IMG/VR virus record: IMGVR_UViG_3300017765_000044 | Span: 1-25,947 of that record | Direction: 5' to 3' (one strand) | From: a virus | Lineage: Duplodnaviria > Caudoviricetes | Length of the DNA: 25,947 nt | Shown here: in pieces, positions 8,979 to 24,770 of the stretch | Numbering within the stretch: the stretch's first letter is position 1 | Layout: each line of letters starts with the position of its first letter | The notes under the pieces: model-generated | What the model was told of the DNA's origin: nothing | What the model saw: only the letters and a program-made list of their open reading frames with translations | Databases searched by the model: none | Made by a program: the position numbers and the translations under genes

Positions 8979-9368
8979 TTATGAATCAAGAGTTACTACA
9001 ACACCGAAACTAGCATCGTCTTTAATAGTAGCAATATCTCCATAATATACACCATTATCTGCGTCAGCTATAGTTACTACGCCGCTAACGTGAGGACCAG
9101 AGTTTATAGCTTCCGCTATTGATCTAGCGATTAACTTAGATCTGTGATAAGAACCTGCTGTAGCATGAGTGTCCGCGTGAGTTATTTTAACAATATCTCC
9201 AACACCACCACCGCCATCAACATCACCCATTGGTGAGTCAAAGTATATATAAGTGTTAGTAGCATCATGAGGTTCTACCCCTAGAAATCTAGAAGCTGGG
9301 TACATAGCTGCTTCCGTAGTAGCATCAGCACCACCACCCTCTGCAAAGTATAAATATTTTTCTGCCAT
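8979..9368 (-). CDS. Small virion protein, possibly capsid decoration; paralogue of 9394-9732
   Basis: 129 aa; aligns by eye with the neighbouring ORF (YLYFAE/FLWFAE, EAAMYPASRFLGVEP/EAMMLPADRYLGCDP, INSGPH/MNANPH, TIADA/VVADA). Confidence 0.7.
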   Translation of the reverse strand: MAEKYLYFAEGGGADATTEAAMYPASRFLGVEPHDATNTYIYFDSPMGDVDGGGGVGDIVKITHADTHATAGSYHRSKLIARSIAEAINSGPHVSGVVTIADADNGVYYGDIATIKDDASFGVVVTLDS

Positions 9369-9393: not shown

Positions 9394-9732
9394 TTAAGCT
9401 ATAGTACAACCAGTTACAAGACCATTAAAAGCCTTATGATAAACTGCTGATTGTCCATTTGCTACGTTAGCGTCAGCGACTACTTGAAACCCCGTTGAAT
9501 GTGGGTTCGCGTTCATGATGTCAGCTAAAGCATCTAACACAGCTTTTTGATTTCCATTTGTGCAGTTAAGGGTAACTGCTTCTCTTGTTGCAGCACCTTC
9601 GATGTCTTGAAAATACAACACTACACCACCAGAAACCGGATCACATCCTAGATAGCGATCAGCTGGTAACATCATAGCTTCGTTGGTTGTCTCAACATCA
9701 GACTCTGCAAACCATAAAAAATTTTTTGCCAT
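9394..9732 (-). CDS. Small virion protein, possibly capsid decoration; paralogue of 8979-9368
   Basis: 112 aa, downstream of the capsid gene cluster; similarity as described for the neighbouring ORF. Confidence 0.7.
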   Translation of the reverse strand: MAKNFLWFAESDVETTNEAMMLPADRYLGCDPVSGGVVLYFQDIEGAATREAVTLNCTNGNQKAVLDALADIMNANPHSTGFQVVADANVANGQSAVYHKAFNGLVTGCTIA

Positions 9733-10731: not shown

Positions 10732-12234
10732 TTAGTTCATTAACATAAAGTTGTTAGCACCTTGAGTAACTAAACATCTCTCTGATAACATATGCACTTG
10801 CATCGCATCTAACGCTGAAGTAGCAGCTCCAACAGAACCAGTAGTCCAAGTCTTGAACTTTCTGTTATCTGTAGCAGAAGCTCTATAACGCGTATGTAAG
10901 AAAGGACGCTTCAAGTTTTTACCAAGATTTTGGTCGTAAACTGAAGATGTTCCAGCAGGAATCATAATCCCTCTAATAGCATCAGCAGCGTTAACAGCAT
11001 TAATACCACCACGAGTAGCTAAATCATTTAAGTATCTAAAGTCAGATTTGTAGAAGTCGTAAGAACCTCTTCTGAAACCAGAGAAACCTAAGTTTAAAGC
11101 CATATCTTCGTCGTTGTCGAATACTCCGTAAGAAGTACCACCAGCTCCGTAAGAATTCATAGAGGCTAACATGTCGTCAATAGCTAGAGACGAAGCTCTA
11201 TTCATGAACATCATGTACTCTTCAATAGCACCTTGCTTATCGAACTCTGCTAAAATAGCATCAAACTCAGCTAAATCAGTAGCAGCGTTAACACCTGAGA
11301 TACCAGAAGTCATATTACCTCTAGACTCTACAGCAGCAAATAAACCTTCAGTACCAGTAGCTTTAGTAGCTGCATCAGCACCTGAACCACCTAACACATA
11401 AGCTTCTTCAGTAATATCTGTTGACTTACCACCTTTTTCACCTTCTAACATAGCCATTTCTAAGTAATCAGTAAAACGTGCACGAGTATCAGCTTCAGCC
11501 TTAACATACCACAAGTAACCTGAAGCACCTTCCTCAGAAGTAACTTCAACCCAACCAACTCTAGATGTATCAGAACCTGACACTTCGTAGTAGTCTTTTA
11601 AGATAATTGGTTTGTTGTTGTAAGTTTTGAATGCAGGTTCGTTAGCACCTCTAGAATCAGCGCTTGCATCACCAGCAGCGTTAAAGTAACTAACACCTTT
11701 ACCATATTCAGAACCGTAAACTAATAATCTACTATCCTGGTTAGCAGTAGTACCAGTAAGAGCAGCAGCTCCATATATAGCAACATCAATTCTATCAGTA
11801 GCAACTTTTACTACTATACCTTTTTTGATACCGTTAGTGCTGTCAGCTATAATAACTGTGTCATTAACTCTAACACCATGGTTACCAGAAGCAACATCAG
11901 TGTTACCATCAATATCTTTAGTAATGTCAAATTGAGCAGATGAATCTAAACCACCAGCTGTAGAATGAACATGACCTTGATATGAAAGGTGTAATCTACC
12001 TTGTTCAGACCATACAACTTGATCAGCTTGCATAGCCTCTTCAGCACCTACTTTTGATAAGAAACCTGAAATAGTTCTCGGTCCGAAAACTTCAGCTTCT
12101 TTCTCCATTAGGTCTGGAATGTATTGTTGCGCCCAGTCAGTAGTACCTGACGCTAAATCTAAATAGTTTGAGGATAGTGTTTGCTGCCCAGGAGCTGGCA
12201 CAGCGTTTAAACTACCTCCTGCAGTAATTGCCAT
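10732..12234 (-). CDS. Major capsid protein
   Basis: 500 aa, Gly/Ala-rich, with strong codon bias; follows portal and scaffold and precedes a strong terminator; motifs WSEQGRLH, LEMAMLEGE, GTEGL and FYKSDFRYLND. Confidence 0.85.
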   Translation of the reverse strand: MAITAGGSLNAVPAPGQQTLSSNYLDLASGTTDWAQQYIPDLMEKEAEVFGPRTISGFLSKVGAEEAMQADQVVWSEQGRLHLSYQGHVHSTAGGLDSSAQFDITKDIDGNTDVASGNHGVRVNDTVIIADSTNGIKKGIVVKVATDRIDVAIYGAAALTGTTANQDSRLLVYGSEYGKGVSYFNAAGDASADSRGANEPAFKTYNNKPIILKDYYEVSGSDTSRVGWVEVTSEEGASGYLWYVKAEADTRARFTDYLEMAMLEGEKGGKSTDITEEAYVLGGSGADAATKATGTEGLFAAVESRGNMTSGISGVNAATDLAEFDAILAEFDKQGAIEEYMMFMNRASSLAIDDMLASMNSYGAGGTSYGVFDNDEDMALNLGFSGFRRGSYDFYKSDFRYLNDLATRGGINAVNAADAIRGIMIPAGTSSVYDQNLGKNLKRPFLHTRYRASATDNRKFKTWTTGSVGAATSALDAMQVHMLSERCLVTQGANNFMLMN

Positions 12235-12252: not shown

Positions 12253-13440
12253 TTATTTATTCTTTTTGATTTTAAATTTGAAATCAGAAGAATCATTACC
12301 TAACACTCTAACAGTTGTACCACCAATAGTTTTGCTACTGTGTGTACCTCTTGGGTTGACGTTAATATTTTTATCTTTAGCTACAGATGTTTTGACTGCG
12401 TCTGCTTTTCCTTGCTCATAGAAATGTTGAGCAATAGCATCAGCATTCATTGCTGTAAATAAAGATTTGTGGTAACCTGCAGCATCACTCATCTGATTTT
12501 TGTCATCCAAAAACTTTTGGATAAAATTGTTGAGGTCGCTTTGTGTATTCTTTACGTCTCCCACGTTTTTCACATTGTAACGATAAGTCTTATCTCCAAC
12601 CTTATAGTCAAAACCTTTGAACTGGTTGTTAAATAGATTATCAGTTTTCTTTAGAAAAACATCTTTGTTAGCTTGTGTTAGTCTTTGGGTTTCTTCAGAC
12701 TCCGCACTGTATTTATTGTAGAACTCTATAGCTTCTTGTTGCTCACCTGTAAGTTTGCTACCTGCTTTAATGTCCTGGTAATATTTAGACTTTTGCCCGT
12801 CCAAGTAGGCTTTCGCTTCAGCAACTTGCTCTTTTAAAGCGATTTTCTTTGATCTTATTGTACGCTCATCATCTACGTCTTCATCAAACCCAAAACGATC
12901 TTCTAGTAAGAAGTTTCTTTCTGATGCTGATAAGTGAGATTTTGTTGAGCGATAGTATTCATCTAAAACCTCAGAGTCATCTAGTTTGTCTAGATCTCTA
13001 TTTAAGGTTACGTAATCGTTTATATCTCCTCCAGTATCATCCATAAAGTCAACCAACTTCTGAATATTCTCTGGTAGAGGTTTACCAGTTTCTACAGCTT
13101 CAACTATTGCTTCAGCCACTTGCTCTTCTACTTGTTGAACTTGTTTTTCAACAGCTTCAACTTCTACTACCTCTTCTAATACTGGTGCTTCTGTTTCTTG
13201 TACTTCTCCTTGCGGTTGTACTTCTTCTTGTTCTTGTGGGGCATCGGGTGTTTCATCGCGTCCCACCATTCCTGCTGTGTCAGCTTCTGCTTCTGTAGTT
13301 TCATCTGGTATCTGTATTTTGTCTAGGTCTATCTTAACCACACTGTCATCACCTTCGCTCATAAACGTTGGTTCGCTTTTAGTGTTTTCAATTGGTTGTT
13401 CTGTAACCTCTTCAGTTACGTTTTCTATTTCTTCTGCCAT
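12253..13440 (-). CDS. Capsid scaffolding/assembly protein
   Basis: 395 aa with a very acidic low-complexity N-terminus, a helical middle and a basic C-terminal tip (FKFKIKKNK); lies between portal and capsid genes. Confidence 0.7.
   Translation of the reverse strand: MAEEIENVTEEVTEQPIENTKSEPTFMSEGDDSVVKIDLDKIQIPDETTEAEADTAGMVGRDETPDAPQEQEEVQPQGEVQETEAPVLEEVVEVEAVEKQVQQVEEQVAEAIVEAVETGKPLPENIQKLVDFMDDTGGDINDYVTLNRDLDKLDDSEVLDEYYRSTKSHLSASERNFLLEDRFGFDEDVDDERTIRSKKIALKEQVAEAKAYLDGQKSKYYQDIKAGSKLTGEQQEAIEFYNKYSAESEETQRLTQANKDVFLKKTDNLFNNQFKGFDYKVGDKTYRYNVKNVGDVKNTQSDLNNFIQKFLDDKNQMSDAAGYHKSLFTAMNADAIAQHFYEQGKADAVKTSVAKDKNINVNPRGTHSSKTIGGTTVRVLGNDSSDFKFKIKKNK
13176..13304 (-). CDS. Candidate overprinted 42-aa basic peptide in the +1 frame of the scaffold gene (MKLQKQKLTQQEWWDAMKHPMPHKNKKKYNRKEKYKKQKHQY), ArfA-like motif
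   Basis: Hand-translated. ATG at 13304, TAG at 13176-13178, A-rich upstream sequence, locally GC-rich codons; the HKNKKKYNRKEK motif resembles ArfA EKNKKGKGSYMRKGKH. Confidence 0.5.
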   Translation of the reverse strand: MKLQKQKLTQQEWWDAMKHPMPHKNKKKYNRKEKYKKQKHQY

Positions 13441-13461: not shown

Positions 13462-15855
13462 TTATCTTGGATTAAACCTCTCTAAACCAAGGCCCCCTCC
13501 GACTATATCATTACCTGATGATTCAAATCTTTTAAGTGATTCACCCTTATTTTTTGCTTCAGCTTTAATTTTTTCACGTTGATCTAACCTATCATCTTTA
13601 CGCGAGTCTCTTCTATCTATGGTTTCGTTATCCATAGTATTAAGCTTCATGTTAATAAACATTTCATGGTTCATTAACTCCTTCTTAACGTTAGCTTCCT
13701 CTCTTAAGTAAGCCATCTTCATGTCATTTTTAGCTTGCTCTAACTGTTGATCAATCTGAGCTTTCTGTTGCGCTTTTTGCATTTCAGCTTGAGCAGCAGC
13801 TTGTTGAGCTTGTTGATTAGCCTGTGATTGAGCTTGAATATTCTCTTGCTGCATCCTCTGATCTCTCTCAAGTTTCTTTTTACGTTTTATCTTAAGAAGT
13901 TGATTAGCTAATTTAACATTTCTAATATCTCTAAGATCTATAGCATCGTCAAGATCTATCAACTTTTGAGCCAAAGCTTGCTGTATATTATTTTCAAGTA
14001 TTTGTTTTTCTTCATCATCTGGCATTAACTCTATAAATATACCAAAGTCATATAAGTGTAACTCTGCCATTTCCTCTAACGTGGCAACGTTATGAGCACC
14101 AATAGCCTGTATAAAAGCTTCTCTAGTTGGAGAGTACTCTATTATATCTGATATTCTAAGCGATAAAGCTTCAGCGTTTTCAGTAGCTAACAACAACATA
14201 GATTGAAGTATATGTCTAGTTGCAGTGTTAGAATTTGCAGCAGCTAATTTTTGTATACCAACCAAAGCATTTTTGTCTGGTGTTGAAGCGTCTCTAGATT
14301 CATTTAACCCGGTGACATCACGTATCATCTGTAGATAATAATTATAAGTCTGGATTAAACTCTGTAGTTTATTACCACCTGCTCCGTTTTGTATTTGCTG
14401 AATAGGTATTTTACCAGGATTCTGATCTCCTTCAGAAGTGAACGATCTACCTATAACCGAACCAGTTTGGAAGAACATGTTTAAAGCCTCTTGCGGTGAA
14501 TAATTAGTTCCATTGCCAAGATCAATCTCTGCCAAACCGTCAGCGTCCATATAAACACCATCAGGCACCATACGTGATAGTACTTGCTGTAGTTTTAGGT
14601 GTGTTAACTGAATCATATCAGCAAAACCAGTTATTCTACTAACTATAGATTCTATTTTACCCTTGTACATTCTAGGTGCTACAATGCTATAATTAGTTCT
14701 AACCTTAGAAAAGTTTGATTTGGTCCTTAGCATATTCTGAGCCATTTCCCATTTAAGTAATCTATCAGTACCAAGGATCAACACTCCTTCGTACAAGCAT
14801 TCAACTACTCTTTCCAACTTAGAGAAGTTCCCCTCCATGTCAGCCGGTGGATTAAAGGTATCGTCTTTCTCTATAACTCTCTCAGCACCGCTACCAGTTT
14901 CTTTTACTTTGTAAGTATTATTCTTATGTGTTTTAAAGTTGAAATATAACACGTCAACTTTATTATTATCTTTACTGTTATAGTTTCTATTATGACCTTG
15001 ATAACTTCTCATAGAGCTTCTTGGCCCACTAACAATATCCTTAATATCAGATTCAGTTAACTCAGGGAATTGTTTTACTAACTCGTTTAAAGGTATCTCT
15101 TTAACTTCACCAACGTAATATATATCATCAAAGTAAGGTGATTCAGTGTAAGAATAAACTAGATTAGCTGGATCAACATATTCGACTTTAGCACCTTCAC
15201 TCCAATCGAATGTTGTTTTAGTAGCACCAATACCTATAGTAGTTAAATCATATAAAGCTCTTCTTTTAATTAGATCAAATCTACTACCATCTAACAAAAC
15301 ATTTATAGCTTGTTCTTCAGCTAACTCAACAGCTTGTTTATAATCTAACTGCATGTGCAACGCTAACTCTTCTTCTGTATCAGGTAGTTTTTCTGGATCA
15401 TTCTCGTATAGATCCATATTTAAACCTTGCTTAGCGGCATCATTAAATTCTTTAGCTCTAATGTCCCTAAGCATAGATTCCATATACTCAGTCCTCTTAC
15501 TTACACCATATGAATCTTGAGAATAAGCTTTGACTTCGTAAGCTCTTTGAGCCATACCGTTAACAACTATGTCAACAAACTTAGGTACAATTGGTACAGG
15601 TTTCCAATCTAGATTTAAGTAGCTTAAGTCACCATTTATAGATAACTCGTCTTTGTATTTTTGTATAGGTTGTTCTCCTCTAGCGTACAACCTTAAGCTA
15701 TGAAAGTTACTTTGTTGTTTATGGTATCTATGATTGTTACCAGAAAACCACTCGTGCTCTATAGCTCTAGCTACTTTCAATCCATATTCCTTAGTCATCT
15801 TTTCTAGATCACTAACTGCTTGTGAAGGAAAATTACTTATCGCAGACTCTGCCAT
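13462..15855 (-). CDS. Portal protein
   Basis: 797 aa directly after TerL; motifs PIVPKFVDIVVNG, EYVDPANLVYS and IRDVTGLNESRD; Gln-rich coiled-coil C-terminal barrel typical of podophage portals. Confidence 0.85.
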   Translation of the reverse strand: MAESAISNFPSQAVSDLEKMTKEYGLKVARAIEHEWFSGNNHRYHKQQSNFHSLRLYARGEQPIQKYKDELSINGDLSYLNLDWKPVPIVPKFVDIVVNGMAQRAYEVKAYSQDSYGVSKRTEYMESMLRDIRAKEFNDAAKQGLNMDLYENDPEKLPDTEEELALHMQLDYKQAVELAEEQAINVLLDGSRFDLIKRRALYDLTTIGIGATKTTFDWSEGAKVEYVDPANLVYSYTESPYFDDIYYVGEVKEIPLNELVKQFPELTESDIKDIVSGPRSSMRSYQGHNRNYNSKDNNKVDVLYFNFKTHKNNTYKVKETGSGAERVIEKDDTFNPPADMEGNFSKLERVVECLYEGVLILGTDRLLKWEMAQNMLRTKSNFSKVRTNYSIVAPRMYKGKIESIVSRITGFADMIQLTHLKLQQVLSRMVPDGVYMDADGLAEIDLGNGTNYSPQEALNMFFQTGSVIGRSFTSEGDQNPGKIPIQQIQNGAGGNKLQSLIQTYNYYLQMIRDVTGLNESRDASTPDKNALVGIQKLAAANSNTATRHILQSMLLLATENAEALSLRISDIIEYSPTREAFIQAIGAHNVATLEEMAELHLYDFGIFIELMPDDEEKQILENNIQQALAQKLIDLDDAIDLRDIRNVKLANQLLKIKRKKKLERDQRMQQENIQAQSQANQQAQQAAAQAEMQKAQQKAQIDQQLEQAKNDMKMAYLREEANVKKELMNHEMFINMKLNTMDNETIDRRDSRKDDRLDQREKIKAEAKNKGESLKRFESSGNDIVGGGLGLERFNPR

Positions 15856-15858
15856 AAT

Positions 15859-18087
15859 TTACTTTTTTATTATTGTTGAATTAAAACCTGTATTTTTATA
15901 TTTGGATATTGTAAGGTTAACTGGTTGTTTTTTATGCTCTGGATTTGGTCTATATAAATGTCTATTGCAAGCCATGATAGCTAAACCGGTGCTGATAGAG
16001 GCATCATGCTTTGTTCTCTTTGTTATGTCAAATCTACTCCAATCGTTTAACGTCTCGTTAAAATACATAGTACCATAAGTACCGTCTTGAAGCAAACCAA
16101 CATGGTCGTTAATGTACATTTCAATCGCAGCAGCGTGAGCTTGTTTTATATCCTCGCTAGAGTTTGGTATACCACCTACTTCTCTTTCAGCCACAGATAA
16201 TTTATTCCAAACCTTGTCAGGCCTGTTCATACTAAAACCTCTATAACCTCTTCGCCGTAAATAATACAATAGACGAGGTTTATTATTCTCCGCGAGTATA
16301 GGCATCCCGTAGAATACTAATGCCATTAGAACATCCTCAAAGAATATCTCCGCAGTTTGTGGTCTAGCTATATACTCTAAGAAAAATGTATTAGCTGGAG
16401 CATCTTCCATACTAAACTTGCTTAGTCCATGTAATGCTCCTTTAGATCCTTTACCGTCCACAGTACCTGATATGTCGTAACTGTCACATCCAAAAGCTCC
16501 CATGTGCTCGTTTCCTGGATACTTAATACCATTCTTTATTATTACATTATTTTGTAAATTCCTACCAGGTACCCAACTAACTTTAAACCTGCCGTTTGGA
16601 TCTGGATTGAAAACTATCTGTGTGTCTTTAACTCCATTGACCCACTGAAAGTTACCAGTAGTTAATACTGAGGAATTTCTATTACCCTCGTTGTAATCAA
16701 TTTGTTCGTATATCTTGACGAGATTAAATAAAGAATTTTTCGTTTCATCTCTAAACGCGTGTTCTTCTGATCTTGGAAACTGTCTATAAAACTCATTTAA
16801 AGCGTCTTGATCTCCTTTTAATCCATCAACTTCATTCTCCCAGTAATCAACTACGCCTATATCTATTAATTCACCATGAGGTCCTCGCCTGTCATCAGTT
16901 GGTGTATCAAATACTGGAATTCCGAACTCATCAATAAATCCTTCATAGTTCCACTCCATTGGGATAAAAAGAGAATATAAACCAGATTTTGTCTGGCCAT
17001 TTCTATTTCTTCTTGATACATCTGAGTCATAAAACAATTTTTTAAAATTATCACCACCTTTATCTAAAGCGTTAGACGTTGAACCCATCATGCATTTACC
17101 TACTATTCTACCACCTAATCTTAAACAAGTTTTGGTAACTCTCCAGTTATTGAGGATGTTATCTGGTCTCTCCCATTTACCACTCTCATCATGAACTAGT
17201 AGAGAAAGTTTCTCACCATCATAACTGTTATCACCAGTATTCTTCCAGTCAATAGTAGTGTCAAGACCTTGCATGTCATCTTGCTCCTCATGCACTCCCA
17301 TTTTTCTACGGGTAAACTTCTTAGCTGGTACACGGTAAGCTAGCTCTGACTTTGGGCGATCCATACCATCTTGTATAGGTTTAAAGAAAAACGGATAGTT
17401 AATACTTATAGGTACTATCTTATCCGTAAACATTTTCTTAGCATCCGCCCCACTTTTAGATAACACTCCAAATCTACTATCACCTGCGAGAGTGGCTAAG
17501 TTAACGGTTTCAGCTGAACTCATAAACGAGAAACCAGAACGTCTGTTTTTAAGATAACACATCCCGTAGCATCTTTGATCAGCTTTACACGCTTCCCAAA
17601 ATATAAAAAATAATCTATTTGCTTCTCTAAAATCTGGGGCACCAACATCAATCTTACTCCATTGCAAATACATGTAGTAACTGCCAGGTACGTATGTTGG
17701 AGTGCCGTTATTCATAAACCAAAAACCGTTCTCTCTCCTGTCGAATTCTTGATCTATATAACCATAGTGGGATTGTTTAAATTCCTCGGGATAATCAACC
17801 CAATCAAACCTAGTTTTAATCTTTTTAAAAACCTCGGGTGTTTCAAACTTTCTCCACTTCTGCTCACTCTTCTTCTTAGAGCAACTAAATACATCTTTAG
17901 GTACTTTAGGTAAAGCTATCTTTAAACCTTGTATATCTAATATCTCACCTATCTGACCAGACTTAGATATAACAATTACATCTCCCTCTTTATCATAACC
18001 ATACTTCCACTTCTTACCTTTATTAAGTCTATTAATAGTGGTTAGTTTAACAGGTTCAATTATCCTATATAATGATTGCTCGTACAT
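15859..18087 (-). CDS. terL: Terminase large subunit
   Basis: 742 aa; Walker A-like LKNRRSGFS, Walker B LLVHDESGKW, coupling motif GSTS, nuclease motifs FGCDSYD, LAENN and HDASI. Confidence 0.92.
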   Translation of the reverse strand: MYEQSLYRIIEPVKLTTINRLNKGKKWKYGYDKEGDVIVISKSGQIGEILDIQGLKIALPKVPKDVFSCSKKKSEQKWRKFETPEVFKKIKTRFDWVDYPEEFKQSHYGYIDQEFDRRENGFWFMNNGTPTYVPGSYYMYLQWSKIDVGAPDFREANRLFFIFWEACKADQRCYGMCYLKNRRSGFSFMSSAETVNLATLAGDSRFGVLSKSGADAKKMFTDKIVPISINYPFFFKPIQDGMDRPKSELAYRVPAKKFTRRKMGVHEEQDDMQGLDTTIDWKNTGDNSYDGEKLSLLVHDESGKWERPDNILNNWRVTKTCLRLGGRIVGKCMMGSTSNALDKGGDNFKKLFYDSDVSRRNRNGQTKSGLYSLFIPMEWNYEGFIDEFGIPVFDTPTDDRRGPHGELIDIGVVDYWENEVDGLKGDQDALNEFYRQFPRSEEHAFRDETKNSLFNLVKIYEQIDYNEGNRNSSVLTTGNFQWVNGVKDTQIVFNPDPNGRFKVSWVPGRNLQNNVIIKNGIKYPGNEHMGAFGCDSYDISGTVDGKGSKGALHGLSKFSMEDAPANTFFLEYIARPQTAEIFFEDVLMALVFYGMPILAENNKPRLLYYLRRRGYRGFSMNRPDKVWNKLSVAEREVGGIPNSSEDIKQAHAAAIEMYINDHVGLLQDGTYGTMYFNETLNDWSRFDITKRTKHDASISTGLAIMACNRHLYRPNPEHKKQPVNLTISKYKNTGFNSTIIKK

Positions 18088-19795: not shown

Positions 19796-20145
19796 TATTC
19801 GTTATCTCTAGCCTTCTTCTCCCAAGGAAAGTTCATACTACCCTCTTCGCTCCACTTACCGTTGTACTTAATCTTACCATCTTTTCTATGATAAGTTTTA
19901 CCGTTATATCTAACATAATCATCTCCATAAGAAAGCTTACCAGACTGCATGTCCCTCATATGTTGCATCTCGTGGTTGATAACTTTTTTCTCTAACGCAC
20001 TTCCAGGTTTCACAGACTTATCTATATCTATAGAACCGTCGTTATTAGCTTTACCCACGACACCGTCTTCTAGTTTTTTTCTAAATATAGGTGTGTTCTT
20101 AGAGTTTCTAATTTGTCTACTTTCTCTACCTAGTTTAAATCCCAT
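19795..20145 (-). CDS. Zincin-type (HExxH) metalloprotease
   Basis: 116 aa; VINHEMQH zinc motif and downstream PWEKKA providing a candidate third ligand Glu. Confidence 0.7.
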   Translation of the reverse strand: MGFKLGRESRQIRNSKNTPIFRKKLEDGVVGKANNDGSIDIDKSVKPGSALEKKVINHEMQHMRDMQSGKLSYGDDYVRYNGKTYHRKDGKIKYNGKWSEEGSMNFPWEKKARDNE

Positions 20146-20687
20146 TATGCTAAATCGGTTTCTTTTTGTTTAGACTTGTTTGTAGCTATGTTTTTTTCTT
20201 TCTTCTTTTTTTCGCTTTCAGCTATCATCTCTTTACTCTTACCTTCAGCTACTTTTTTAGTACCTTTAACAACTGCTTTAGTTGCGTACTTTGCTGTAGT
20301 CTTAGCGGCGGCAGCCAGTGCTTTACTTCCTTTGGCCGCAGTCACACCTGCTTTAGCTAGTTTACTAGCACCCACGGCTAATCCAGCGCCAGGAACAGCA
20401 GCCGCAGCGTTTAGAGCCATAGAAGCAAGATGCTTTTTAACTCCAGTGTTATCACCAGTGTATCCAGCGTAAGCAGCTCTACCACCAGATATAGCAGTAT
20501 TAGCAGCATCAGCTATATTCCCAATACCTGGTATCATACCTGCAGCGGTTAAAGCTACTTGACCTTTATCCATTAAACTACTCCAATCGAAATTTAATGG
20601 TGAGCTACTCTTGTCTTCCGAGCTTCTCCTTGATTCTGGTTTTCCAGCTGACCTAACAGTTTTACCGTAAGCTTTGTTATATGCCAT
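20145..20687 (-). CDS. Gly/Ala-rich protein with a pre-toxin-like helical hairpin and Lys-rich tail; possible internal/ejection protein
   Basis: 180 aa; ALTAAGMIPGIGNIADAANTAIS...MALNAAAAVPGAG; SPLN at residues 29-32. Confidence 0.65.
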   Translation of the reverse strand: MAYNKAYGKTVRSAGKPESRRSSEDKSSSPLNFDWSSLMDKGQVALTAAGMIPGIGNIADAANTAISGGRAAYAGYTGDNTGVKKHLASMALNAAAAVPGAGLAVGASKLAKAGVTAAKGSKALAAAAKTTAKYATKAVVKGTKKVAEGKSKEMIAESEKKKKEKNIATNKSKQKETDLA

Positions 20688-21127
20688 TATCTGTCTTTGT
20701 CTTTAATCATATCATCTATAGCCTTGTTCATAACTTTGTCAGTATATGATTCGTTCTTATAGTAAGGATTTTTTATTGAAACAGGTATATCCTCTTCTCC
20801 AAGCAGAATCCTGTATATTCTACTTATCATATGATTACACTTAAATGACGTTTTGTAAACCGCGTACTTCATTGTGGTTCGATTTCTCTCTCTCCAAACA
20901 TCTATCCACCCATCTCTTCTCAACCGCTCCCATCTATGTTTATCCCATGAGTAAGAATAAACACCGTTAATAAACTCGTGCCTTGTAAATCTATTTAAAC
21001 AATTTAAATATATTAATAATTCTAGATCAGCATCGTTTATCTTGTTAGTTTTACATATCCATTTACGTACTATCCTGTAGTACTTAAATAACTGTATTCT
21101 CTTTATGTCATCAGACGTTATCCTCAT
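20687..21127 (-). CDS. Putative winged-helix (MarR-like) DNA-binding protein
   Basis: 146 aa; INDADLELLIYL ... WERLRRDGWI ... YKTSFKC pattern fits MarR-type wHTH spacing. Confidence 0.5.
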   Translation of the reverse strand: MRITSDDIKRIQLFKYYRIVRKWICKTNKINDADLELLIYLNCLNRFTRHEFINGVYSYSWDKHRWERLRRDGWIDVWRERNRTTMKYAVYKTSFKCNHMISRIYRILLGEEDIPVSIKNPYYKNESYTDKVMNKAIDDMIKDKDR

Positions 21128-21380
21128 CTACTAGAACTACATCTCTTAATCTAATAACTCTATACATAAGATCTTCATAGGCTATATCATGACCGGCGTG
21201 CTTATCGTACATCACTACCGTATTAACTTTTATGATGTCCGCTAAGTTTCCAACTGATACTACCTTAGCTTTCTTATATCTATTATCTGTATCCGTATCG
21301 TCTGTAAGTAGAAGACCACCTGAAGTAGTCTTCTTTTCTTTAATTCTCTCTACTACTATATAATCGTTAACTGCCTTCAT
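21111..21380 (-). CDS. groES: Co-chaperonin GroES
   Basis: 89 aa; MKAVNDYIVVE, mobile loop KTTSGGLLL, AKVVSVG, VMYDKHAG, VIRLRDVVLV; overlaps the groEL stop. Confidence 0.9.
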   Translation of the reverse strand: MKAVNDYIVVERIKEKKTTSGGLLLTDDTDTDNRYKKAKVVSVGNLADIIKVNTVVMYDKHAGHDIAYEDLMYRVIRLRDVVLVDEDNV

Positions 21381-22932
21381 TTATTCTTACGTTTGAGATT
21401 ACACAATCCGCTGACATTATTGTAAGCGCTACACTGACCGCATTCTTTAAAGCTGTCTTAGTTACTAACACTGGGTCTATAATACCAGCGTCAACCATGT
21501 CAACAGGTGTACCGGTTACTACGTCCACGCCTCTTCCGATGCCTTGTGAATTATTAGTGTTCTCATAACCTGCGTTGTTTAGTATGGTTTCATAAGGTGC
21601 TCTACAGGCTGTAAGCAATACTTCTCCGGCTTGCCCGGAGAGAATTTTTTCTGCAGCATTAAGTAGCGCAACTCCTCCTCCAGGAACTATCCCTTCTTTT
21701 AAAGCTGCCTTAGTAGCGTATATAGCATCTTCAACTCTATCTTTCTTTTCTTTTAACTCAACTTTAGAATCAGCACCAACCTTAATAACACCCACACTAC
21801 CGGATAAAGTGGCTAAACGTTGTTCTAGTTTCTTTTTAATAAAACCATTCTTTTCTTCAGCAACCATAGCCTTAACCTCTACTATTCTTTCTAGAATACT
21901 ATTCGTTGTAGCATCCATAGTTATAGTAGTATTTTTATCATCGGTAACAGCGAAATCAACTTCACCCAAATGTTCAGGTGTAATAAGATCTAAGTCATCC
22001 CCTAGTTCTTCATTAATTACTGTAGATCCAGTTAATATAGCTAAATCCTCTATAGCATCCCGTTTAGTAGGTCCAAAGCCTGGTGGATCAACGATGTTTA
22101 CTTTAATGTTACCTTTAACCTTGTTCATTAGCAACGCAGATTTAACTTGCTGAGCTACTGGTGCTACTATAAGTAATGCACGACCTTGCTTTATAACATG
22201 CTCTAGTACTCCTTGTATCTTACGTATGTTAGGTATCTCAGAGGAAACTGTCAACACATATGGATTATCTAATTCACATATATGCTTCTCATTGTTAGTG
22301 ACAAAATGAGGAGATATAAGACCACAGTCTATTTGAGCACCATCAACTATGTCTACATACGTATCCTCAGTTGGGCTCTCCTCCATAAGAACAACACCGT
22401 GCTTACCTACTTTTTCATAAGCTTCAGCTATAATTTCACCTAATTCGTTATCGTTATTACAAGATATAGCTGCGACAGCTTTAAGCATGTCACCTTCTAC
22501 ATCTAAGGATGTTGAATCTAGGTATTCAATAACCTCAACAAGGCATTGATTAACTCCATCTTTAATTTCTCTGATTGAAACGCCTGCAGCGACGGCAGTA
22601 CGTATAGAATTTATAAGGGCTTCGACTAGAACTGTAGCGGTTGTTGTTCCATCACCAGCTTCTTTAACTGTATTACGAGCAGCCTCTTTAACTAGAGTTG
22701 CCCCCATATTCTCAACCGGGTCAAATAAGACTACGCTTTCTGCAACGGTTACACCGTCTTTTGTTATGACCGGTTTGCCTCGTCCATCTTCGTAAATAAC
22801 GCATTTTCCCGATGCGCCCAATGTGGATTTAACGGCTTTTGCTAGCTTGTTTACACCAGCAATTACTCTATTCTCAGCTTCTTGGCCAAAGTTTAAGTCT
22901 TTAACCAATTCACTAGGTAAATTGTACTCCAT
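21367..22932 (-). CDS. groEL: Chaperonin GroEL (phage-encoded)
   Basis: 521 aa; ITKDGVTVA, AGDGTTTATVL, PGFG, ELKEKKDRVEDA, EGIVPGGG, GIIDPVLVTKTAL; lacks the GGM tail. Confidence 0.97.
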   Translation of the reverse strand: MEYNLPSELVKDLNFGQEAENRVIAGVNKLAKAVKSTLGASGKCVIYEDGRGKPVITKDGVTVAESVVLFDPVENMGATLVKEAARNTVKEAGDGTTTATVLVEALINSIRTAVAAGVSIREIKDGVNQCLVEVIEYLDSTSLDVEGDMLKAVAAISCNNDNELGEIIAEAYEKVGKHGVVLMEESPTEDTYVDIVDGAQIDCGLISPHFVTNNEKHICELDNPYVLTVSSEIPNIRKIQGVLEHVIKQGRALLIVAPVAQQVKSALLMNKVKGNIKVNIVDPPGFGPTKRDAIEDLAILTGSTVINEELGDDLDLITPEHLGEVDFAVTDDKNTTITMDATTNSILERIVEVKAMVAEEKNGFIKKKLEQRLATLSGSVGVIKVGADSKVELKEKKDRVEDAIYATKAALKEGIVPGGGVALLNAAEKILSGQAGEVLLTACRAPYETILNNAGYENTNNSQGIGRGVDVVTGTPVDMVDAGIIDPVLVTKTALKNAVSVALTIMSADCVISNVRINEGS

Positions 22933-22969
22933 AATGTATTGAATTGAATTTAATTAAATTGTATAATGC

Positions 22970-23269
22970 TTAAGATTCGAAGGTTTTAACTACTTTCGGT
23001 CCACTAAGGAACTCCAGTTTTTTACCAAAGTGTTCGACACTGCCATCGATAGCCGCTTCAGCTCCATCGAGAGTCTCTCTACGCGTGATGTCAACCCATT
23101 TTTCTTCGTCATTTGGGTTGTTGACTTCTGTTTGGTAGTACCCATTTGGTAATTGTGTTATTCTCCAGTTCTTTTTATCTGCTAAATGCTTCCATTCAGC
23201 AATTTTCTCTTCCGAGACGTTAGGTTTACCAGTATTTAGGGTACTGGTTTTGTAGTAATAATAGGTCAT
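22970..23269 (-). CDS. Conserved phage hypothetical protein
   Basis: 99-aa ORF in the operon (WRITQLPNGYYQTE, WVDITRRETLDGAEAAIDGS). Confidence 0.75.
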   Translation of the reverse strand: MTYYYYKTSTLNTGKPNVSEEKIAEWKHLADKKNWRITQLPNGYYQTEVNNPNDEEKWVDITRRETLDGAEAAIDGSVEHFGKKLEFLSGPKVVKTFES

Positions 23270-23297
23270 TTGTTTTTATTTTGGTTTATTGATTAAT

Positions 23298-24044
23298 TTA
23301 TTTCTTATTTTGCGGGCCAGCTGGTTTTTTCTTGTTAGCATCTGACTTCATTACACCTGTACTAGCTTTTTGAGAGTCTTTAGCTCTGTTGTAATCTTTA
23401 GCAGCTTTCTCAAACGATGCGTAATCTTTGTACTTACTCTTAACACCACCTTTATCTGCGTCCCAAGCTGCTTTATACGTTACTCCAGTACCTCTTTTTG
23501 TAGGTACTTTCTTAATAGTCTTCTTAACAACTGGTTTTGTAACGACTTTACTTTTATCAGCTTGAGGTTTTGTAGTTTGTATCTTTGTACCTGCTCTACC
23601 TTTACTATCAGTTCTTGCGTCTACAGCTTTATTGTAGTTTTTCATGCTAGCATCGTTAACAGGCATAGCTGTTGGAGCAACTTTAGTCTTACCTTTTTTA
23701 GCTTGTCTAGCAGATATTCTTGCAGCTTTCTTAACGTTACCTTTTTCAACTGCTTTTGCTATACGTTCGTCAGCGGATCTACGGTTTAAAGGGGATTGTT
23801 TATCAGATGCAGCCTTTTTCATAGACTCTTTTCTGTTACCATCTCCATCAATGTCCGGATAATCTGGCTTAGCCATCTTCATTGGTGAGTCTTTGTATTT
23901 TTTCATTGGTGACTCAGCCTTGCTTGCATGCACGGCTTTCCTTTGTGCATCTGACTTATACTTGTTTAGTGGGCTGGAAACACCTTTGTGAGCTGAAAAC
24001 CCTTTCATTTTAAAACCTCTACCTTGTTTCTTAAAGTTTGGCAT
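23298..24044 (-). CDS. Lys-rich modular protein with repeated SP[LM] motifs; putative internal/DNA-binding virion protein
   Basis: 248 aa; GFKMKGF, SPLN twice, SPMK twice, a DIDGDG EF-hand-like loop; strongly basic. Confidence 0.7.
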   Translation of the reverse strand: MPNFKKQGRGFKMKGFSAHKGVSSPLNKYKSDAQRKAVHASKAESPMKKYKDSPMKMAKPDYPDIDGDGNRKESMKKAASDKQSPLNRRSADERIAKAVEKGNVKKAARISARQAKKGKTKVAPTAMPVNDASMKNYNKAVDARTDSKGRAGTKIQTTKPQADKSKVVTKPVVKKTIKKVPTKRGTGVTYKAAWDADKGGVKSKYKDYASFEKAAKDYNRAKDSQKASTGVMKSDANKKKPAGPQNKK

Positions 24045-24050
24045 AATTAC

Positions 24051-24770
24051 TTATTTTTTATATTTTTTATTTTTACGTCCTTTAAATGGTAATGGGTTAT
24101 TACCTTTATAACTTAAAGCTTGTTTTCTACTGTAAGTCACAGGTGACTCATCAACCCAATCTAAATCTCCTTTAGGTGTAGTTGGGTTACCAACTAAGGT
24201 TGTGGATCTTCTAGCAGAGTAGTTATCTTCATAATCAGAAGGATCTCCAAACATGTCATCATATTTAGAGGAGTCATACTTAGGTTTTTCTACTACAGGT
24301 TTTTTAATAATCTTCTTTTCCTCTACAACTGGTTGCTCAACAATCTCTTCTCTAGGTCTAACAACTTGCTCACTACGTTTAAGCTCCATTTTAGGAGAAT
24401 CAGTAGGTATGGCTTTTGTATTTTTAGTATCAAGAGATATTGTTTCTTGCTGTACAGGTCTCTTTCTATCCTCTCTCTTTTTTCTATTTTCATCTCGCAG
24501 AGCTATTAACTCTTCCTCAGTCATTTTTCCTTTCTTTTCACCACTGAAAATATCTTTAATCTTATTGCTAATCTTTCTTCTTTTCTTTTTAGATATTACA
24601 GGACCTATACCAGAACCAGATTTTTTATATCTTCTTTTTCCACCACTGTAAGTCCTAAAGTTTTTGTTTTTACCAACGTTACGGACTAAACCTCTACCTC
24701 TAGGTCTCTTATTTAACGGTGATTCTTCACCGCTACTACCTTCTCCAAATCCTGGTAAGTTAAATGCCAT
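24051..24770 (-). CDS. Lys/Arg-rich protein with an SPLN motif; first gene of the minus-strand block
   Basis: 239 aa; MAFNLPG...ESPLNKR; basic N- and C-termini. Confidence 0.7.
   Translation of the reverse strand: MAFNLPGFGEGSSGEESPLNKRPRGRGLVRNVGKNKNFRTYSGGKRRYKKSGSGIGPVISKKKRRKISNKIKDIFSGEKKGKMTEEELIALRDENRKKREDRKRPVQQETISLDTKNTKAIPTDSPKMELKRSEQVVRPREEIVEQPVVEEKKIIKKPVVEKPKYDSSKYDDMFGDPSDYEDNYSARRSTTLVGNPTTPKGDLDWVDESPVTYSRKQALSYKGNNPLPFKGRKNKKYKK

Follow-up and report, generated by a model that had tools for sequence, protein, structure and literature searches.

Gene context of the nested reading frame

The stretch of DNA analysed here, called the window, comprises all 25,947 nucleotides (positions 1 to 25,947) of the IMG/VR record IMGVR_UViG_3300017765_000044, which represents a 46% complete marine phage of the Caudoviricetes. 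Its minus strand contains a small open reading frame (ORF), MKLQKQKLTQQEWWDAMKHPMPHKNKKKYNRKEKYKKQKHQY, with the ATG at 13304 and the TAG ending at 13176, which lies wholly within the ORF 12253..13440(-) and is read in the +1 frame relative to this host gene. The original prediction had placed a complete ATG-to-TAG ORF in the +1 frame of a scaffold ORF without naming the strand; it was borne out, and the strand is minus. The encoded 42-aa peptide, which together with its homologues is designated family A, contains 14 K+R residues versus 3 D+E residues and has a net charge of +11. The GC content was 36% over the whole window and 37% over the host gene, but rose to 47% in the overlap, with a maximum of 57% at 13230-13289, in agreement with the local GC enrichment described previously.

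The host gene lies downstream of the terminase gene and is flanked by the portal and capsid-like genes (Table 1). Its cultured relatives belong to Flavobacterium (Elemovirus), Cellulophaga, and Maribacter phages, with identities of around 35-37% among the matches listed; their gene order is identical, and the host gene is labeled structural or hypothetical. The hosts of the family A phages are probably of the Bacteroidota type. The C-terminal domain of the host protein was modeled as mostly long helices. Since it had no PDB match, by sequence or by fold, and its fold matches were only uncharacterised phage proteins, such as that of Cellulophaga phage phi18:3, we infer the scaffold identity from position, acidity, and the helical model. 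These three properties fit the name scaffold used in the original prediction, but no match to any known scaffold was obtained. The host gene is partly covered by contigs from four RNA libraries, including one that matches 12834-13223 at approximately 96% identity; because these contigs may derive from DNA and are silent on strand, level, and translation, they were not counted as support.

Within the peptide, L8 and W13 were invariant among 29 nested family A copies, and the structure model contained a helix at residues 10-18 and no strand, with low global confidence (pTM 0.29). In 96% of 82 relatives, folding of the start region was weaker than the average for the gene, and the base at position -3 of the internal start was mostly C. 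The A-richness upstream of the internal ATG follows from the host-gene codons as well. Shine-Dalgarno (SD) pairing is described as not being used by flavobacterial ribosomes (PMC7797042).

Table 1 Features of the nested locus and examples of family B
Feature	Position	Strand	Basis
Host gene, 395 aa, putative scaffold; acidic variable N-terminal ~120 aa (holding the nested gene) and conserved C-terminal domain predicted to be mostly helical	12253..13440	minus	ORF list, relatives, model
Nested +1-frame gene, 42-aa basic peptide (family A), ATG to TAG	13176..13304	minus	ORF reading and comparison with relatives
Peptide residues 8-18, conserved L-T-x-x-E-W-x-x-A-[ML] segment, predicted helix at 10-18	13251..13283	minus	Alignment and model
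Peptide residues 20-36, P-x-P-x-K-N-K-K-K-Y-x-R-K-x-K-[HY] basic tail, the part aligning with ArfA; KY at the KH position in the window copy	13197..13247	minus	Alignment
A-rich stretch 5' of the internal ATG, putative SD-less initiation region	13305..13334	minus	Inferred
Portal protein gene, directly upstream of the host gene	13462..15855	minus	phrog_6547, E 7.5e-148
Virion structural (capsid-like) gene, directly downstream of the host gene	10732..12234	minus	phrog_13704, E 2e-94; "capsid" from size and position
Terminase large subunit gene	15859..18087	minus	phrog_6681, E 7.5e-171
Family B examples, nested in +1 within the host gene and other proteins	L047:1729-1848, L049:3050-3181, L030:2317-2469, loci L250-L328		

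Elsewhere on the minus strand of the window, basic ORFs at 20145-20687, 23298-24044, and 24051-24770 contain one, four, and one copies, respectively, of an S-P-[LM]-[KN] motif, a possible cleavage or packaging signal. GroES-like and GroEL-like ORFs were recognised by eye at 21111-22932, and the adjacent small ORFs at 8979-9368 and 9394-9732 have similar N-termini and are probably paralogues. The repeats at the Cys-rich end of a 2315-aa ORF hold a 92-aa +1 ORF (377-655), possibly as a by-product.

Selection acts on the nested frame

Taken from one genome alone, the nested ORF does not exceed chance, and it is the comparative test that decides. A +1 ATG ORF of at least 42 aa arose in 56% of 20,000 synonymous resamplings of the window's own host protein, because its residues are already shaped to permit a +1 ORF. 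Such an ORF appeared in 4.5% of composition-only shuffles, and the N-termini of relatives lacking the peptide contained a +1 ORF of at least 38 aa in 2.5% of cases.

Among the best 80 of at least 599 confirmed host-gene loci, the family A peptide was intact in 44 (L042 counted; L004 is identical to the window), while 5 carried an unrelated peptide, family B, 23 had no long +1 ORF, and 8 had other short +1 ORFs of 29-40 aa, which were not taken as genes. A 29-aa Lys-rich +1 ORF occupies the same slot in L033, L036, L038, and L077 (e.g., L077:2569-2658), which lack family A, and is either a remnant or a product of chance. In a sample of 184 distinct host proteins enriched via peptide searches, 95 contained A, 48 contained B, 16 contained B followed by A, and 25 contained neither. 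Among the 111 family A carriers, the peptide started with ATG in 108 cases and with GTG in two, and one copy was broken, so that 110 of them kept ATG or GTG. The conservation of the +1 start and open frame that had been proposed as a check was accordingly found.

The pN/pS values were pooled pairwise counts over related sequences, with the family A class initially chosen by its +1 motif. Over 34 distinct cores, pN/pS was 0.35 in the +1 frame versus 1.04 in frame 0, and amino-acid identity was 0.72 versus 0.57. With 105 distinct cores, the values were 0.31 in +1 (0.18 in close pairs) and 1.32 in frame 0. The downstream control region of the 34-core comparison showed the reverse, with 0.28 in frame 0 and 0.98 in +1, where 10% of the codons were stops. 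Synonymous divergence of the host frame (pS) dropped approximately fivefold, from 0.54 in the C-terminal domain to 0.104 in the overlap (166 pairs). Selection thus shifts from frame 0 to +1 over the overlap, as the dual coding postulated for this part of the scaffold requires, and neither frequent stops or ATG loss among the carriers nor a better conserved frame 0 was observed. The locus shows what is expected of a nested out-of-frame gene, with its open frame and start kept, purifying selection in +1, and host synonymous change suppressed.

The ORF might instead be a shadow of the host codons, or be reached only by frameshifting, with no independent gene present. Such an explanation could draw on the 56% of resamplings in which the window's host protein regenerates a long +1 ORF, and on the partial circularity of a class first chosen by its +1 motif. 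It does not account for the flip of selection to the +1 frame, the retention of the start codon, the existence of free-standing homologues (below), or near-identical sister genes that differ in the presence of the peptide, in which the matching host residues change along with peptide loss. A mere shadow is therefore largely refuted and highly improbable, and the nested family A ORF is almost certainly a real gene.

Family A has free-standing members

Used as a single query, the window peptide retrieved very little, with 1 and 15 matches and no Pfam or PHROG family. A profile built from the 29 nested copies matched 966 protein clusters, which form a large unnamed family, and more distant subfamilies also exist. 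The stand-alone homologues suggested as a search target were found: 18 of the 86 family A loci examined were free-standing and 68 were nested. The free-standing copies sit among non-structural genes in larger phages, and the would-be host frame holds 2-8 stops in 15 distinct copies. Lys was encoded by AAG in 519 of 706 codons in nested copies versus 59 of 175 in free-standing ones, a preference that arises because the acidic host frame requires AAG.

The original prediction described the gene as overprinted. Its nesting under dual coding stood, but de novo origin in the strict sense is doubtful because free-standing family members with a closed host frame and distant subfamilies exist and an unrelated peptide occupies the same slot. 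It is probable that an existing small gene was captured into the tolerant acidic linker and then lost repeatedly, rather than being born in place. In a quick tree of 136 host C-terminal domains, whose root rests on long outgroups, peptide-free rows were scattered among carriers, with at least nine changes forced by the starred branches, and the tandem rows (B then A) lay near the base. When the host gene lacked family A, the peptide was not found elsewhere in the record either (0 of 38 records, mostly fragments but including one that is 98% complete); the peptide is therefore dispensable.

No match to family A was detected in 399 of 401 Bacteroidota genomes. The two remaining matches were rejected as cellular homologues, one being a phage-like contig in a metagenome-assembled genome (MAG) and the other a weak 18-residue match. 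Seven genome-contig matches (L240-L246) all came from MAGs, and several of these bear the phage host gene and resemble binned phage DNA. A tblastn search with two homologues and the low-complexity filter on returned no cultured carrier of family A, which was absent from Elemovirus F, Panino, ctfjg026, PTm1, phi4:1, Calle_1, and Molly_1. Three further observations concern individual loci. A family A copy at L244:3001-3123 is broken by a stop codon, with an intact family B upstream; the 715-aa protein P0148 contains a family A-like segment in frame within a long acidic protein; and another Lys-rich peptide of 45-47 aa, ending in Y-[RK]-G-Q-G-K and without a Pfam match, occurs near free-standing family A at L133:2238-2375 and L205:376-519.

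An unrelated peptide family shares the slot

Family B (MPFKSKAQ type) is a basic peptide unrelated to family A that occupies the same +1 slot of the host gene. It was nested in +1 at 75 of 79 loci, 66 of them in the recognised host gene and 9 in others, mostly proteins of 1100-1700 aa, and was under purifying selection, with a pN/pS of 0.38 in +1 versus 0.90 in frame 0. It had no Pfam match, and the nearest named Atlas cluster was DUF3008 (score 0.85). At nine loci (L263, L267, L297, L314, L320, L322, L186, L187, and L238), B is followed by A in one +1 frame, forming a hidden two-gene operon within the host gene. Family B was also present, unannotated, in the +1 frame of a 3694-aa structural gene of the cultured Elemovirus F (L368:3501-3629, MT497071.1) and of a giant structural gene of ctfjg026 (L369:3001, MW202828.1), which offers a cultured system open to test. 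An S/T-P/A-L/M/F-K/N/R motif of the window's basic ORFs at 20145-24770 was found in 20 of 71 family B tails versus 2 of 73 family A peptides.

Similarity of family A to ArfA

Family A resembles ArfA (PF03889; E. coli YhdL, 5u4i chain w) in its small size and basic character and in the order of its parts, a hydrophobic N-terminal stretch preceding K-N-K-K...Y-x-R-K-x-K-H. In profile-profile comparison with 25 ArfA sequences drawn from genomes, the free-standing family A set reached a probability of 72% (pairwise E 3.4e-5, 25 columns) and the nested set 64%, whereas the equally basic family B reached 0.2%. With an ArfA HMM, 55% of the 29 nested members scored above the 99th percentile of each sequence's own shuffles, as did 75% of the 69 free-standing members and none of 71 family B sequences. 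The scores of family A were all low, at 5-12 bits, and reversed ArfA once scored up to 11.6 bits against the nested profile. Two more distant subfamilies remained at shuffle level (0/5 each), with profile probabilities of 16% and 7%.

Searching the PDB (177,635 sequences) with the free-standing profile gave 5u4i_w (ArfA) at E 2.7 as one of only two matches at E ≤ 10; the other, PnpC (E 1.3), was discarded as surely due to chance. The nested profile found nothing in the PDB. In the Atlas, a cluster with 23% ArfA members appeared at rank 15 with a score of 0.90, which is weak evidence because its recognition was low (1964). The Pfam ArfA model PF03889, with a cut-off of 25.5 bits, recognised none of the 29 nested and 69 free-standing members and nothing in the window's record.

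F25, KGKGS, and R41 were invariant in the alignment of the 25 ArfA sequences. Family A keeps the Y-x-R equivalent and lacks KGKGS, while F25 falls outside the aligned part. The K of the KH position was invariant, with H in at least 90%, in the 69 free-standing-looking members; among the 111 nested copies, 79 have KH and 30 have KY, as does the window copy. The P-x-P-x of family A stands in place of R-V-E, a position that we take to be that of the short beta-strand through which ArfA joins the RF2 sheet and so recruits RF2. Family A is further distinguished from ArfA by being phage-borne, with the window copy nested in another gene and bearing KY for KH, and by an ordinary stop a few codons past the tail, without the hydrophobic extension.

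ArfA and BrfA are described as products of non-stop mRNA, with a hairpin or terminator 5' of the stop codon and control by tmRNA (PMC8012679). Nested family A copies stop a few codons past the tail while the host ORF runs on. Of the 18 free-standing loci, only L133, its duplicate L219, and L242 have a strong hairpin ahead of the stop; the others stop 3-8 codons after the tail. Non-stop regulation was therefore rejected as a family A trait, since only two distinct free-standing copies show it. In these two (L133:2498-2650 and L242:2995-3153), the stop is reached only after the frame has passed a T-rich stretch and a strong hairpin folding at -20 kcal/mol, which may represent BrfA-like non-stop regulation in a sub-branch.

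Of the ArfA-like basic segment claimed originally, the likeness itself, though weak, held for the C-terminal ~17-25 residues, where it beats composition, and the PDB alignment shows the gap at GKGS as proposed; the invariant KGKGS is missing and the Pfam ArfA model does not recognise the peptide. Family A is hence not a member of ArfA, although it may act in a similar manner.

Proposed function and alternative explanations

As judged from sequence comparison, family A may be a rescue-type factor that binds in the mRNA channel and frees stalled host ribosomes together with a host release factor, a tentative proposal that we prefer to its rivals, although at less than even chances. Binding in the ribosomal channel of any kind, whether for rescue or as a plug, is an evenly balanced proposition. 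Production of the peptide would occur late in infection, through a separate start at the internal ATG of the head-gene transcript. Nesting would be cheap because Glu and Gln codons read in +1 are Lys codons, and the only cost would fall on the low-constraint acidic linker. The Y-x-R-K-x-K-[HY] basic tail would dock in the vacant mRNA entry channel of the host ribosome, and the Trp-bearing helix might contact the decoding center or the release factor in a way unlike that of ArfA. The host release factor would then free ribosomes stalled on broken mRNA. Being made with a normal stop codon, the peptide would stay outside tmRNA control. Two circumstantial observations favor translation control in this group of phages. 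A bS21 gene accompanies a free-standing copy in 2 of 12 partial virus records, in one of them at a distance of 3 kb and in the same orientation, and Cellulophaga phage Calle_1 (W06, MT732432.1), which lacks family A, encodes a full tmRNA at 42950-43311 (86.6 bits). Two others speak against it: bS21 was found in none of 12 records with nested copies, and no tmRNA above the cut-off was detected in 18 records.

The main rival is a small basic nucleic-acid-binding peptide of the virion or its assembly, co-translated with the head genes, that would neutralise packaged DNA or pair with the acidic scaffold region. We regard this as conceivable but somewhat unlikely. The location in the head module and the high net charge speak for it, and the presence of the unrelated family B in the same slot, in tandem with A in 16 of 184 host proteins, and in giant virion genes fits a generic basic-peptide role, as does the motif shared by family B tails and the basic ORFs of the window. 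That motif is nearly absent from family A itself, in which W, P-x-P, Y, and K-H are kept exactly, beyond what charge needs. The free-standing copies, located in non-structural regions of much larger phages, argue for a host target rather than one capsid. This target could be other than the ribosome, such as tRNA, another RNA, a defence protein, or the membrane, with the likeness to ArfA reflecting convergent basic tails. The low ArfA scores, the patchy presence, and the repeated loss typical of accessory host-interaction genes agree with such a role, which nevertheless appears unlikely, as Pfam, PHROGs, the PDB, and the Atlas yielded no positive lead beyond unnamed families.

A peptide that plugs the mRNA channel without a release factor, blocking tmRNA-SmpB or parking ribosomes for shut-off or hibernation, would agree with a match to ArfA confined to its channel-binding part and with prolines in place of the strand region. 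A synthetic SmpB-tail peptide is described as inhibiting tmRNA binding (PMC8012679), and a related subfamily has one half in common with mycobacteriophage L5 gp78, reported to be toxic (PMC5035744). A general block of translation is hard to reconcile with expression from the head-gene mRNA, however, and gp78 had no direct family A match, so that we consider a plug quite improbable.

Comparison with known systems

Release-factor-dependent rescue factors other than ArfA, namely BrfA of Bacillus and ArfT of Francisella, are small with a basic C-terminus, as is family A. Rescue factors of this type are characterised by release-factor-dependent hydrolysis of peptidyl-tRNA on non-stop ribosomes and by synthetic lethality with ssrA. 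ArfT has around 40 aa, and the K-H pair is described as common to ArfA and BrfA (PMC6881298, PMC8012679), contacting 16S U534 in both (PMC6881298). No chain of BrfA, whose structure is given as 6SZS (PMC8012679), was among the PDB matches at E ≤ 10. Over the basic tail, DUF7230 (PF23876) was matched weakly by 57 of the 69 sequences in the free-standing set and by 15 of the 29 in the nested set; the best reached 22.7 bits against a cut-off of 27 bits, which none of 20 records exceeded. PHROGs 2701, 6310, and 18092 were matched with E values down to 3.7e-5. A subfamily bridges to L5 gp78 (PF26884, Phage_L5_Gp78) at 25-26 bits via a shared half. Direct homology between family A and gp78, which is reported as toxic to M. 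smegmatis and E. coli (PMC5035744, citing Rybniker 2008), was unsupported (2.6% and 1.2 bits), and the bridge shares different halves with each. The text passages on the LeBron screen do not name the presumed homologue. DUF7230, the three PHROGs, and PF26884 carry no assigned function.

The bS21 of Bacteroidetes phages has been proposed to act on Bacteroidetes ribosomes and to be expressed with late structural genes (PMC9723584). Unlike family A, it is a recognisable ribosomal protein acting at initiation, and no sequence relation between the two was found.

Same-strand nested genes of phages include the lysis genes phiX174 E, within the scaffolding gene D, and lambda Rz1, within Rz. Like these, nested family A is a small complete gene in the +1 frame of a larger one, which for phiX174 E is a scaffolding gene. 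In contrast to them, it is an exchangeable nested unit (A, B, B then A, or none) with free-standing homologues, and family B occurs in varied host genes.

Significance

Nested phage genes and small rescue factors are already known. In searches of open-access article texts, we found no earlier description of family A or of a phage ArfA-like peptide. The gene is easily missed by gene callers: 44 of the best 80 relatives (of at least 599) carry family A, and the Elemovirus record leaves the family B equivalent unannotated. The locus illustrates a simple nesting route: an acidic disordered linker accommodates basic peptides in its +1 frame, where they come and go, replace one another, or accumulate in tandem. 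At 42 aa, the peptide is short enough for direct synthesis and testing.

Further small release-factor-recruiting proteins have been suggested to exist (PMC8012679), and an ArfA-like family A would, if true, answer this suggestion. We consider it possible, with odds leaning against it, that family A is a widespread phage family of ArfA-like rescue peptides, the fourth release-factor-recruiting type and the first viral one. In abundant marine Bacteroidota podoviruses, the acidic scaffold linker would then hide it in its +1 frame as an exchangeable operon of one or two genes. If the ArfA-like function is true, these phages would supply a virus-encoded ribosome-rescue factor to hosts for which 399 of the 401 Bacteroidota genomes searched gave no homologue.
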